DNA of 7,371 nt, from NCBI GenBank assembly GCA_000004985.1, contig GG739143.1; one strand, 5' to 3'. The notes beneath the pieces were generated by a model that worked only from the letters and a program-made list of their open reading frames with translations, was not told the origin of the DNA and searched no databases. This DNA comes from Naegleria gruberi (taxonomy: Eukaryota). The position numbers were made by a program, and so were the translations under genes. Below are positions 1-7,371 of the stretch, one piece after another; within the stretch, counting starts at the first letter, position 1; each line of letters begins with the position of its first letter.

Positions 1-236
1 CAACTTTTTGATAGGTTTCAAAACAAACTGGCAGAAACCTCTTTCCAACTGTCTTGCTTTGAGTCTTTCAACCATTTACCACTCTCAGCATCAAAATAAT
101 TATCTCCCCACAATTTTTCTGCCACAACATTCACATCCATTCCAAACTTTTTCGAATAAAACTTGGCAAAATCATGCAAATTAAAAGCCCAACCTCCCAA
201 TGCAGATCCAAAAGTAACATGACCATTCTGTGGATC
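1..236 (-). pseudogene. eEF2-family (elongation factor 2-like) gene fragment. It is 5'-truncated at 236 and frameshifted near 46-52, and continues past the window start.
   Basis: The minus-strand translation from 236 down to about 48 reads DPQNGHVTFGSALGGWAFNLHDFAKFYSKKFGMDVNVVAEKLWGDNYFDAESGKWLKDSKQDS. This aligns residue by residue with the eEF2 G'-region (yeast: [55 protein letters not shown]). That frame then hits TGA at 18-20. Homology continues in the next frame from about 48 down to 1 as LERGFCQFVLKPIKKL (human eEF2: LPRTFCQLILDPIFKV; yeast: LERAFNMFILDPIFRL). This indicates a 1-nt indel. Upstream of 236 all three frames are closed (TAA at 237-239 and others), so the GTPase domain is missing. 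Codons are non-optimal (gga, gtg, gcc, tcg, gag), unlike a highly expressed EF2. Confidence 0.7.
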
Positions 237-254
237 TTAGGATTATCATTTTGT
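236..254. repeat. Left copy of a perfect 19-bp inverted repeat (cttaggattatcattttgt).
   Basis: The exact reverse complement occurs at 1828-1846. The match does not extend beyond 19 bp in either direction. The copy abuts the truncation point of the eEF2-like fragment. Confidence 0.9.
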
Positions 255-362
255 ATTTAAGGAATTTAACAGCTGAAGGTTATCTATATGGATTCTATAT
301 ATTACATTTTGATCATTTTTTGCCAGTTTTTATGATTTTACATATTTTAGTTTGTTATCTCA

Positions 363-376
363 ATATATATATATAT
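363..376. repeat. (AT)7 microsatellite.
   Basis: atatatatatatat is read directly from the sequence. The flanking sequence tctcaat...tttcaaa resembles the flanks of the 1697-1710 copy. Confidence 0.95.
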
Positions 377-652
377 TTCAAATTTAAACCCCACTTATTA
401 ATTAGTAGCTTAATTCTTTATAGTTATAAATGGAGAAAAACCTAAATTATTGATCAATAGGAGTTGCTTAATGACTACTAAAACATAAAAATTGTTCAAG
501 ATGAATAGAAACATTATCAGACTCGTATCATTTCGTTCTGTTGGTATTCTGTTAAAATACCTTTTACTACTTAAACACAAAGAAGAACAATTCTTGGAGT
601 TTTTTTGCAAACTTTCCCCCTTACTGTAGTGCAATAAAAATTGAACATTCAA

Positions 653-666
653 ATATATATATATAT
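653..666. repeat. (AT)7 microsatellite.
   Basis: atatatatatatat is read directly from the sequence. Confidence 0.95.
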
Positions 667-736
667 TGATAAAAATAGAACTCGTTTCTAATTTCACAAC
701 ACAACACCCCATAAATTGGATAGTTGTAATTTTCTA

Positions 737-749
737 ATATATATATATA
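737..749. repeat. (AT)6 microsatellite.
   Basis: The run is preceded by ttctaa, as at 1691-1696. Confidence 0.9.
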
Positions 750-1346
750 ACAGAATTATTACAATATTCGCCTTATTTAAGGTGTTCTATTTGTTTTCTA
801 TCTAGTAATTTAACTTTAATGTTGGTATCATTGTTTTTCAAAGAGAAAATCTTACTAAATAATCTTGAATGTAATCTCTCCTGTTACTTTTCACCCTTAT
901 TGAATAATATTTTCTTGATTGCTCTCCTTTTATGAGAAGAAGTTTGGGTAACATAATATATATTTTCATTTATTTAACATGGCTAAAAAAAATACAATAA
1001 ATATCAATTTCTGCATTAATTGGATTGTAGAGGGTCAATATTTACTGAGGGTGTTGAAGACTTACCTTTACAGGAAGTTGGTACAACATGATTTATTGTT
1101 CTCTCCTAACAAACCTGTAATGGGATGTTTGAAAATCGTTGACAAGAACATTTGTACGTTTTTAATTATTGATAGAGAATGCTGCTTACCAAGATGTAGT
1201 ACATGTTGAACAGCATTCAAAACAATACAACTGAGTGCATTGTGATATGTTGATATCACCAAATCGGCATCACTATTTTAGGATGTTGTTCAAAGAGGAA
1301 ATACTTTTTCTGAAAAACAGTACATTTAAACACTTTCATAGTTTGT

Positions 1347-1361
1347 TATATATATATATAT
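1347..1361. repeat. (TA)7 microsatellite.
   Basis: tatatatatatatat is read directly from the sequence. Confidence 0.95.
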
Positions 1362-1696
1362 TACAGAAAGTTCTCCTATTACCCAAATACTTACTTGTTA
1401 TTTTTCTGTAAGTTTTGATCCTCTTCAAGTCAGATTGAATTAGTCCAATTATTGTTTAAATAAACAAGATTATTTGCTGAAATGCTTGAAATCGGAATTC
1501 ATTAAACTGATTTTGTCATAATGCATGTTGTTGAAAATATTTCAATTTAATAATCTTTAAATATTGATTAAGAAAGGAAATCAGTAAATTTATCTTTAAA
1601 TAATATATTAGTTTCTTTATGGAAAGGTATGAGTTTTCGTGGTTATTTTATTGATCAAGTTATCCTTATTTAGCTTCCTTATTAACTTTTGTTCTA

Positions 1697-1710
1697 ATAT
1701 ATATATATAT
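1697..1710. repeat. (AT)7 microsatellite.
   Basis: It has ttctaat on the left and tttcaaa on the right, which resembles the copies at 363 and 737. Confidence 0.95.
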
Positions 1711-1792
1711 TTCAAAACAAATCAAGAGAATACATTTTTCGAAAAGTTTTATCTCTTGATAGTTAGTAATCTGAAAGGGAATCTTCACCTAT

Positions 1793-2410
1793 TTATCTCT
1801 CAGTTTTCATAAAGAAAAATATATAAAACAAAATGATAATCCTAAGTTTTTGAACAATCTCCCATTCTGCTTGATTTTCAACACTATTGAATTGGGTAGA
1901 TGGTGTAGAAAGATCCATACACAATCTCCAAATACAAGTCAAACATCTTTGCAAGACGTGGTAATGTTGCTTGGTCATTCTTGTTCTGATTGGTTGATTA
2001 TTTGTTACTGGGAGTGGGCTGTTTCTATCGCTACCAGAACTAGTACCGAAAGGATTGGATGAACCTACAGATGGTGGAGCACTATTAGGTCCGTTATTAA
2101 CTTGGTAAATGGATTGAATGGTACTGATTGGTTGGTATAATTGCAAAATGGAAATCATTAATTTGTAAACGTGTATTCTGTAAACATAATTCCAAATAAG
2201 TTTCAATCTTTCGCAACCAGTATTTCTATTCAAATTATTATTAATCAAAACATCACACAATAAATCCAAACAGAAGAGGGAAGTATCTAAGTCTCTTTCA
2301 TAATAGTAATAGGTTGAGGTAGTTGCATTTTGTTGTTTGGTTGTTTTCAATGTGAACAAGTGAGGAGCAGAATGAATGTGCCAATTAAAAAATGCAAGAC
2401 GATAAATCAT
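1793..2410 (-). CDS. Hypothetical protein of about 205 aa from the ATG at 2410-2408. The ORF is open to 2452 but that codon is TTG. It is tentatively Mediator Med7-like.
   Basis: A 219-codon open frame sits in a region where the plus strand is full of stops. The central region uses strongly yeast-preferred codons (gct cca cca tct gta ggt tca tcc ... aga). The protein has an S/P/N/G-rich low-complexity middle. The motif pair LDLLCDVLI ... ERLKLIWNYVYRIH, with spacing of about 22 residues, resembles the Med7 core LDLLDILI ... EDLKLLFVHVHHL. Total size matches Med7 (about 220 aa). The last 17 codons (LRIIILFYIFFFMKTER) are encoded by the inverted repeat and AT-rich DNA, so the native C-terminus may have been replaced. 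Confidence 0.5.
   Translation of the reverse strand: MIYRLAFFNWHIHSAPHLFTLKTTKQQNATTSTYYYYERDLDTSLFCLDLLCDVLINNNLNRNTGCERLKLIWNYVYRIHVYKLMISILQLYQPISTIQSIYQVNNGPNSAPPSVGSSNPFGTSSGSDRNSPLPVTNNQPIRTRMTKQHYHVLQRCLTCIWRLCMDLSTPSTQFNSVENQAEWEIVQKLRIIILFYIFFFMKTER
1828..1846. repeat. Right copy of the perfect 19-bp inverted repeat (acaaaatgataatcctaag).
   Basis: This is the exact reverse complement of 236-254. It lies in the last 17 codons of the minus-strand ORF 1793-2452, where coding-like codon usage gives way to AT-rich sequence. Confidence 0.9.
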
Positions 2411-2494
2411 CAATTCCCGAAGTTGTTGTTGATGATGAAGAAACAAATCCAACTATTCCAGGACATGAATCCATCATTGAACAAAATCCTTCTT
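2392..2494 (+). CDS. Possible 5' end of a plus-strand gene (MQDDKSSIPEVVVDDEETNPTIPGHESIIEQNPS...) that runs into the assembly gap.
   Basis: The ATG sits in an aaaaaATGc context. All 34 visible codons are yeast-preferred (gaa gtt gat cca att tca caa), giving an acidic N-terminus. It overlaps the 5' end of the minus-strand ORF 1793-2410/2452, so at most one of the two start assignments is correct. Confidence 0.25.
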
Positions 2495-5507: not shown

Positions 5508-6192
5508 CAAATTCTAATTTAATGTTATTCATGAGAAGAGATGCAACAAATAGCTCTATTTCATCATTAGGAATAACTTTGACAAAATCTGTAATGAACG
5601 AGTAGTATGTTTGGTCACTTGGGCAAATAGTAGAGTAAAACGAAAGATTTTTCATTGATTCCATAACAAGTTCCTGTCTACGCACGATCGTTTTTGCAAA
5701 ATAAGAGAGATAGAGTTGAGATAAACCTTCAATCCAGTATCTTTCATTTTCAAAGTATTCGATATCAAATTGTTGCTTCATATTATTGGCAACATCGCCA
5801 CCATCAATATTTCTAAAAGTATTAAAAACACTCTTCAGTTCATTCCAAATATTGTCGTTCTTGGGACTATTCTCCAATATTGTTGAATAGATTTCGTAAT
5901 TGTGCATTATTTGTGTGTTTCGTTCTCCCTTAATGTTCTTGATGGACATTGAAAAAAACACCAAAGCAAGAGCCTCCCTTAGTCTTTGTTTTTGAAATAA
6001 TGCAAATGATTGTTCATTCACTCTCTGTTCAAATGTTACACTGCTCTGAAGAAACTCTGTATGTAATGCGAGAGTAGGATGTTCAATAATGCACTGACAT
6101 ATTATTAAGGCAGTTTGATCATCTGTGTTATCAACGGCATTTTCGGCCTGTACAGAGTAATCCTTAATATGTAATGATACTCTTTCTGACAT
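5508..6192 (-). CDS. N-terminal 228 codons of a large unidentified protein, which continues into the gap.
   Basis: The 685-nt frame is open from ATG 6192-6190, in a caacaaaaaaaATGtc context, to the gap edge. Yeast-like codon usage and a normal amino-acid composition argue against a chance ORF in roughly 33% GC DNA. I could find no recognisable family motif. Confidence 0.7.
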
Positions 6193-6592
6193 TTTTTTTG
6201 TTGCAATTGTATTAATTTCTCAGAAATGAGTAGTAGCCTCCTAAGAGATGATTTCAGTCCTCTCACATATACTTTATACTATCCAGAGTTTCATCTACTC
6301 ACCAGTCCTCAATTTTCTATTACACAGAAATTGTTAAGAGTTTAATAAGTAAATGTTTTGGTATAGAAAACCTTCCATCAATATCAAGACTACAATGATC
6401 ACCACTCGTAGAACCTTAGGAAGTTCAATTCTATTAAGGAGTGATATAATTTGTGTGTCCAGAATCCATGGTGTTTGGAGGTTTGGATCAATTTCTAAAT
6501 TTACTACTTTCTAAAAATATTACACAACTTGTGAATTAATTTTCAATCAATCTGAAACAAATTCAAAAATACTAAAAAAAAACAAACAATAT
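6193..6592. promoter_or_regulatory. Divergent intergenic or promoter region shared by the minus-strand large gene and the plus-strand eIF4A-like gene.
   Basis: A 400-bp non-coding stretch lies between two divergently oriented ATGs. It contains TATA-like stretches (gatataattt near 6444; tatactttatact near 6268) and an A-rich leader before 6593. Confidence 0.4.
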
Positions 6593-7363
6593 ATGAATAG
6601 TTTCGATAATTTATTGTTGACAGATGATCTCTTGAGAGGAATATATGGCTATGGTTTTGAAACCATGAGTTCTATCCAACAAGAAATATTAAATCCACAA
6701 CAACAACAAACACAACCATCACAACAACAACCATCAAACAGTTCAATGATCGTTCAAGGTCGATCAGGAGAGGGCAAAACCATTGGATTAATTATTAAAG
6801 TATTGAAAACAGTTGATTTTCAAAAGGATGATGATGATAATGGTGTAGAATTGCAAGGTTTAATTCTTGTTCCGAATGAATATTTAGGAAAACAAATAAC
6901 CAAAGCCATGATTTACTTGGGTGAATATATTAGAAATGCAACAATTTCTGATAATGTGAATGAAAATCCGAGAATTCTCATAACCACTCCATCAATAGTC
7001 ATTGAAAAGAAGATTAATGTATCCAAATTGAAAATTCTAGCATGTGATGAAATGAATGTCATGTTACAAATTGGATCACCAACTAGAAGATGTATTAAGA
7101 GAATTTTACAACAAATTCCAAACGAAACTGAAATTATTTGTGTTGGTTCAAGTAAATTGCCACCAGAATGTTATATACATGATCAGCATTTGAAACATTC
7201 ACGTATCATTCAACAAGATAGTGAATTGGGAAGAAATATTTCTGAAAGTTTTGTTTATTGTCCAAAATTGGAGCAAAAACTTGCAACATTGAAGGAACGT
7301 GTCAACACTACTTTTCCATCCAATGTAATATTTTGTAATAATTCTAAAAACAAGGAGAAATAG
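6593..7363 (+). CDS. eIF4A-family DEAD-box paralogue with degenerate catalytic motifs, either a pseudo-helicase or a decaying copy. It ends at an in-frame TAG inside the expected RecA2 domain.
   Basis: [20 protein letters not shown] (4-23) is nearly identical to the eIF4A Q-motif region ([20 protein letters not shown]). The P-loop is GRSGEGKT (6758-6781) rather than AQSGTGKT. Motif Ia is PNEYLG (6872-6889) rather than PTRELA. Motif Ib is TTPSIV rather than GTPGRV. Motif II is DEMN (7046-7057) rather than DEAD. Motif III is GSS (7145-7153) rather than SAT. The C-terminal [14 protein letters not shown] aligns to eIF4A TQAVIFCNTRRKVE. The frame is intact for 256 codons and the A-rich start context is good. 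Confidence 0.75.
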   Translation: [256 protein letters not shown]

Positions 7364-7371
7364 AAGAGATT

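Follow-up and report, generated by a model that had tools for sequence, protein, structure and literature searches.

A 19-bp inverted repeat between an orphan reading frame and a broken EF2-like gene copy in Naegleria gruberi: a probable structural scar, possibly left by a dead DNA element

The window analysed here is the whole of one small, unplaced Naegleria gruberi scaffold of 7,371 bp (contig GG739143.1), which consists of two contigs (1-2494 and 5508-7371; 2,494 + 1,864 = 4,358 nt of non-gap sequence) with 3,013 N between them. Its first contig carries an exact 19-bp inverted repeat whose two arms enclose an AT-rich segment and stand where two unrelated stretches of coding signal end. The features at this locus are as follows.

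1-236, minus strand: fragment of a divergent EF2 paralogue, running off the scaffold end
236-254: left arm of the inverted repeat, CTTAGGATTATCATTTTGT, an exact 19-bp inverted match to 1828-1846
238-239 in the left arm and 1843-1844 in the right arm: nested TA pair, on our reading of the sequence the sole candidate for a target-site duplication
255-1827: interior, 1,573 nt, 25.8% GC, non-coding
363-376, 653-666, 737-749, 1347-1361 and 1697-1710: (TA)6-7.5 runs of 13-15 nt
1828-1846: right arm, exact reverse complement of the left arm (236-254)
1793-2452, minus strand: orphan open reading frame (ORF) of 219 codons

By direct comparison, we confirmed the exact inverted match between 236-254 and 1828-1846, which had been reported in an earlier note on this DNA. 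The pairing reaches 22 nt inward if one mismatch is allowed and does not extend outward, and the window holds no third copy of the 19-mer at three or fewer mismatches. On the minus strand the left arm reads ACAAAATGATAATCCTAAG, whose terminal AG immediately precedes the EF2-like homology, and it contains three stop codons in the EF2 frame. As a null we used 1,000 dinucleotide-preserving shuffles of both contigs, with (TA)n and homopolymer runs excluded. The longest inverted repeat in these shuffles was usually 12-13 nt and never exceeded 18 nt; with none of the 1,000 reaching 19 nt, p is ~1e-3 per window. In the real sequence, the runner-up outside (TA)n was 13 nt, 6 nt shorter than the arm pair. 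The match is thus unusual in its window, as the earlier note had held when it called a chance origin very unlikely. Across a genome taken as 41 Mb, however, which corresponds to ~9,400 windows of 4.4 kb, the same rate predicts several such pairs (about 5-10) by chance.

Searches for the 19-mer outside the window returned 15 loci in metagenome contigs and 4 in 185,579 prokaryote genomes, all of them single copies without a paired inverted copy. These 19 loci represent ~11 distinct contexts, none related to the window, a number close to random expectation. The match extended into their flanks by 2-8 nt, as expected of AT-rich coincidence, and these loci say nothing about Naegleria.

The left flank encodes part of an EF2 on the minus strand. 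From 236 down to 72 it encodes DPQNGHVTFGSALGGWAFNLHDFAKFYSKKFGMDVNVVAEKLWGDNYFDAESGKW, which aligns with EF2 residues ~203-257, and membership of the EF2 family is supported around the segment P..G.V.FGS...WAF...LWGD. EF2 chains in PDB matched the fragment at E = 1.7e-16, a family hidden Markov model (HMM) scored it at 93 bits, and yeast EF2 was 48% identical to it. After a frameshift near 60-72, homology resumed in another frame, with 60 to 1 corresponding to EF2 residues ~265-284 (...LERGFCQFVLKPIKKL). This one-base frameshift lies 60-72 nt from the end of the scaffold and marks either a lesion of a pseudogene or a sequencing error at low coverage. When 1.84 billion representative proteins were searched exhaustively, 952 relatives were returned at E <= 1e-3, the best of them ~50-59% identical. 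The nearest named relative was XP_002679015 of N. gruberi (NAEGRDRAFT_32442), an EF2 paralogue that is divergent and whose GTPase domain is degenerate. Because even the best relatives did not exceed ~59% identity and the nearest named one was XP_002679015, the fragment is a copy of a divergent paralogue, not of housekeeping EF2. XP_002679015 itself lacks ~51 profile positions between the NKxD region and P..G.V.FGS and aligns to the family HMM as two domains; this gap reflects either a gene model that skips an exon or a real GTPase-domain deletion in the paralogue.

The EF2 homology begins at the minus-strand codon GAT (236-234), preceded in frame by TAA (239-237), so that the last base of the left arm is also the first base of the first EF2 codon. 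An eEF2-like frame bordering the left arm within 1 nt had been described before, and this boundary held; what it borders is a broken paralogue copy and not the housekeeping gene. The first ~200 residues of EF2, most of its GTPase domain, were undetected anywhere on the scaffold by tblastn (yeast EF2 and XP_002679015), by two family HMMs run on six frames and in sliding windows, or by Pfam searches for EF2 or GTP_EFTU signal, which covered the interior in six frames and 1847-2494 in its minus frames. Among 2,092 possible upstream joins scanned for a continuation of EF2, none was prominent (best 105.9 bits; median 96.9, standard deviation 2.4). The candidate missing exons VISTY (1259-1245), GDINI (1260-1246), NKND...DLY (1985-1932), DSCPG (~2468) and GCERLK...LYQ (within the orphan ORF) were rejected at noise-level scores, and some of these look-alikes overlap one another in different frames. 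The interior has five minus-strand GTAAG sites, of which one, 1189-1185, agrees in phase with the AG at 237-236; the peptide joined in this way ranked 107th among the 2,092 joins. The 5' truncation, together with the frameshift, indicates that the left flank is a broken gene copy and not a gene interrupted by an insertion.

A possible further trace of EF2 lies just inside the left arm. The minus-strand segment from 329 to 255 (KLAKNDQNVIYRIHIDNLQLLNSLN; 25 codons, 75 nt), which is bounded by stop codons, is in the same frame as the EF2 fragment and resembles XP_002679015 residues 105-129, in exact register with the ...LLIILE/NVVFGS... exon junction of that protein. Its ungapped score of 27 was reached by 0 of 2,786 null windows and by composition-preserving shuffles at a rate of 5e-5, and p rises to ~0.002-0.01 once the choice of register is allowed for. 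The family HMMs did not confirm this resemblance. The segment may be a pseudogene relic or a coincidence.

On the right, ORF 1793-2452 was 100% identical to one database protein, a 'predicted protein [Naegleria gruberi]' of 121 aa that corresponds to 1793-2158; we found no homologue beyond this gene model of its own and no credible Pfam domain. The codon-usage score of the ORF was positive from ~2400 to 1860 in its own frame and fell at ~1850, at the right arm. There the arm encodes LRIIIL on the minus strand, and the final 17 codons of the ORF come from the arm and the AT-rich DNA behind it, which agrees with the previous description of the right copy as the end of this ORF. We considered the orphan ORF as a diverged EF2 N-domain and rejected this, as neither the family HMM nor Pfam supported any EF2 similarity. 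The absence of such similarity means that the flanks do not represent the two halves of a single gene. With EF2 homology starting at 236 and the codon-usage drop at ~1850, we likewise observed that two unrelated coding regions end at the arms, as had been proposed.

Three side observations concern the surroundings of this ORF. An imperfect, spacerless 40-nt palindrome at 1721-1760 (ATCAAGAGAATACATTTTTC / GAAAAGTTTTATCTCTTGAT) lies ~35-70 nt downstream of its stop on the minus strand and could give a transcript a 3'-terminal hairpin. A plus-strand ORF that starts from an ATG at 2392 (MQDDKSSIPEVVVDDEETNPTIPGHESIIEQNPS...) spans 2392-2494, antisense to the minus-strand frames, and enters the gap. 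Near the gap edge, minus frames 1 and 2 score alike, and the coding frame at 2390-2494 is ambiguous.

The segment between the arms proved to be as first described, namely AT-rich, ~1.6 kb long, with five (TA)n runs and no transposase. Its GC content of 25.8% compares with 37% in the left flank and 34% in the right flank. Almost every frame and window had a negative codon-usage score, and nowhere was a positive signal sustained. Pfam identified no family in the six frames of 255-1827, where we saw neither transposase coding nor a remnant of it, and the individual ORFs were not above noise. The interior also contained no tRNA and no Rfam match at E <= 1. When the 200 nt inside each arm were aligned in inverted orientation, they had only a (TA)7 run in common, and the similarity of the arms did not continue beyond 3 extra nt. 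The five (TA) runs have short related flanks (WAATATATATATAT-WW-CARA), and two of the runs sit ~100-130 nt inward, each from its own arm. The runs may have arisen as copies of one very short unit that is dispersed; alternatively, such sequence may be typical of Naegleria spacers.

Next to the arms we found no target-site duplication: the abutting flanks, ...ctgtggat on the left and tttttgaa on the right, share no sequence at 2-11 bp, in line with the earlier note. TTA versus TAA breaks the TWA rule, and TTAA is absent. The duplications expected of hAT, Mutator, PIF/Harbinger, piggyBac and CACTA elements are lacking, and TA alone is possible. Reading the nested TA pair as that duplication would give a 15-bp terminal inverted repeat (TIR), GGATTATCATTTTGT, and a palindromic target CT-TA-AG, and on this reading symmetry or chance has to explain why the outer CT/AG match. 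The offset direct repeat ccattctg that had been pointed out does exist, but its right copy lies at 1862-1869 and not at 1863-1870. We rejected it as a hAT-type duplication: its offsets from the arms are unequal (5 nt at the left arm, 15 nt at the right), both of its copies lie within coding sequence, and ~0.03 such repeats are expected near both arms.

The arm pair is best read as an ordinary structural scar adjoining a broken gene copy, and we stop short of calling it mobile. For the origin of this scar, we tentatively favour a possibility that we still rate below even: that the arms are the TIRs of a degenerate, non-autonomous cut-and-paste element of ~1.6 kb, one flank of which has been lost. 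In the course of events that we infer, an element would have entered at the TA of a palindromic CTTAAG-like site, giving a 15-bp TIR, a TA duplication and two symmetric flanking bases. One flank would then have been lost, through an adjacent deletion or through recombination between two copies. The element would now lie between unrelated sequences, namely the 3' end of the orphan ORF and the 5'-truncated, frameshifted fragment of the EF2 paralogue. As the setting we propose a decaying N. gruberi region rich in gene fragments. The unrelated flanks exclude the simple insertion of a transposon into one gene. An element that lost a flank would account for both the missing duplication and the unrelated flanks, and would require two events.

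Several observations are consistent with such an element. The inverted similarity ends abruptly at both sides, as it does in short TIRs, and provides terminal repeats of 19 bp (exact) or 22 bp (with one mismatch). Both arms lie where coding signal ends, a placement that is unlikely for a chance pair, and TA occurs at symmetric positions inside them. The interior is non-coding and AT-rich, and the scaffold, being small and unplaced, carries broken or degenerate genes. Other observations weigh against a transposon. The interior has neither a transposase relic nor sub-terminal inverted similarity, no duplication abuts the arms, and the nested TA pair depends on the additional CT/AG match. The 19 metagenome and prokaryote loci are single-copy and in unrelated contexts, as chance predicts, and a p of 1e-3 for a single window leaves chance possible in a whole-genome scan. 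A second event also has to be postulated, since the flanks are not parts of a single gene. Finally, a genuine resemblance at 329 to 255 would mean that the left arm has EF2-like sequence on either side, and this would speak against a transposon end at that place.

The earlier note had listed a MITE or foldback, a rearrangement and an assembly junction as alternatives, an interpretation that is supported in part; neither of the two classes of element fits well. At 1,611 bp (236-1846), it exceeds the usual length (<~800 bp) of a miniature inverted-repeat transposable element (MITE) in the strict sense. It is like Stowaway-like MITEs (non-autonomous Tc1/mariner elements with a TA duplication) in having short perfect TIRs, an AT-rich, non-coding and transposase-free interior, and a symmetric TA. 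However, it is two to ten times as long as a typical MITE, its TA lies inside the repeat instead of outside, its TIR has no recognised superfamily signature, and its flanks are two unrelated genes. With foldback elements it shares an inverted repeat around AT-rich non-coding DNA. Foldback arms, by contrast, extend over hundreds of bp to kb and are sub-repeated, whereas the arms here are 19-22 bp, with sub-terminal regions that share (TA)7 only; because the arms are short, we rejected a foldback element.

The candidate that comes next, itself doubtful, is filler at a repair junction. Here the EF2 copy would have been truncated or captured at a double-strand break, and the 19 nt would be an inverted templated patch, with the orphan ORF's 3' end at a distance of 1.57 kb as its template, made by polymerase-theta-type end joining or replicative template switching; the interior would then be ordinary intergenic DNA. 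Consistent with this, the left arm lies exactly at the start of EF2 homology, the scaffold lacks detectable sequence for the first ~200 EF2 residues, and the EF2 piece is frameshifted, as in a dead copy. The arm forms one short inverted copy, exact and without a target-site duplication or transposon features, and an interior of 25.8% GC with repeats limited to (TA)n fits plain spacer. Templated filler at end-joining junctions, known from polymerase theta and from transgene or T-DNA insertions, is alike in that it exactly repeats a short piece of neighbouring sequence, often in inverted orientation, and sits without target-site duplication where a truncated gene was broken. However, the template of such a patch usually lies tens to hundreds of bases away and not 1.6 kb, and the presumed one here, at 1.57 kb, is beyond this distance. 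Filler at a putative breakpoint accounts well for the left arm but leaves unaccounted for why the template lies just where the coding signal of the other ORF ends. Whether as a short-TIR non-autonomous element or as a filler insertion, the feature acts as one of two well-known kinds.

We consider a chance match less likely again. It would be a coincidental match of AT-rich sequence, with the left arm at the 3' end of an intron or the decayed upstream edge of the EF2-like fragment and the right arm in the last codons of the ORF. The 5-10 pairs predicted for 41 Mb fit this explanation, as do the ~11 unrelated metagenome and prokaryote contexts in which the 19-mer occurs singly at about the random rate. 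In addition, the final CTAAG of the left arm could act as a branch-point-plus-AG acceptor, and the weak EF2 'continuations' at several unrelated places illustrate how easily coincidences arise here. Against it, the EF2 start lies at most 1 nt from one arm and the codon-usage drop of the ORF at most ~45 nt from the other, a joint placement that we estimate at ~1e-4 on top of the 1e-3 for the match itself. The arm match also beats every other non-microsatellite inverted repeat in the window by 6 nt. Pure chance is weakened chiefly by this placement of the arms at the ends of coding signal.

An explanation of some other kind, outside element, filler, chance, artefact and RNA pairing, is improbable but keeps a small share of our confidence. 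We also tried an inversion between the arms and rejected it from the translations: the flipped interior continues neither reading frame better.

An assembly or cloning artefact, in which the first ~250 nt were joined through a chimeric clone or read with the 19-mer as the switch point, is more improbable still. The whole scaffold is just 7.4 kb, of Sanger-era sequence with a 3-kb gap, the left arm is 236 nt from its end, and a frameshift of the kind seen in low-coverage sequence lies 60-72 nt from the same end. Nowhere on the scaffold is there an upstream partner for the EF2 fragment. On the other hand, an overlap assembler would not be misled by a match of only 19 bp, and chimeric ligation alone makes no inverted copy. 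We saw no vector-like or foreign sequence, and the junctions have neither N's nor a sharp break in composition apart from the change from coding to non-coding.

Pairing at the RNA level is very unlikely. In a minus-strand read-through transcript, the arms would form a 19-bp duplex with the 1.6-kb spacer looped out, which would bring the end of the ORF beside the EF2-like exon. Both genes are on the minus strand, and loss of 1846..237 links codon K (1849-1847) to codon D (236-234) in frame. However, one join in three is in frame by chance, GT-AG ends are absent, and the two proteins are unrelated, with the EF2 part frameshifted. A step beyond this, we give hardly any credence to the idea that arm pairing guides removal of the spacer as an end-pairing non-GT-AG intron, which would fuse the orphan ORF in frame (...EIVQK/DPQNG...) to the C-terminal four-fifths of an EF2 paralogue. 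Such a hypothetical intron would be like the non-conventional introns of euglenids and the split-intron halves of Giardia in the complementary ends of the removed segment and in its in-frame removal, but the coding regions that flank it here are unrelated and one is pseudogene-like. We know of no end-pairing introns of the euglenid or Giardia type in Naegleria; if true, this one would be the Naegleria counterpart of the euglenid non-conventional introns.

Beyond the gap, the second contig contains two further ORFs. A plus-strand ORF at 6593-7363 is DEAD-box-like (Pfam DEAD, E = 2.4e-12), with motif I as GRSGEGKT and CDEMN replacing DEAD, and it ends at 256 aa, ahead of any helicase C-terminal domain. 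Together with the EF2 fragment, it gives the scaffold two divergent translation-factor-like paralogues, one eIF4A-like and one EF2-like. In IMG/VR, neither the EF2 fragment nor the DEAD-like ORF had close relatives among viral contigs, and a giant-virus origin of the scaffold was accordingly rejected. On the minus strand, a 228-codon ORF (6192-5508) starts from an ATG and runs into the 3-kb gap. It had 0 matches among 5.8 billion proteins, Naegleria gene models included, and no Pfam domain, and it has the appearance of an orphan gene that was left without annotation and extends into the gap.

Repeats make up 5.1% and coding sequence 57.8% of the N. gruberi genome (PMC9928731), and DNA transposons exist in this species, most of them without classification (PMC12344493). 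In our literature search, we found descriptions of neither Naegleria MITEs nor this 19-bp inverted repeat. Under either outcome, element or scar, current understanding would be unchanged. For annotation, the 121-aa 'predicted protein' model terminates in repeat-derived codons, and the EF2-like piece is a broken paralogue and not a gene. If the arms are a repair scar, they would serve as a minor example of templated end joining from a discoban. If the arms are transposon ends, they would add one more unclassified non-autonomous element to the poorly catalogued repeats of N. gruberi and would provide an example of transposon-associated gene truncation.

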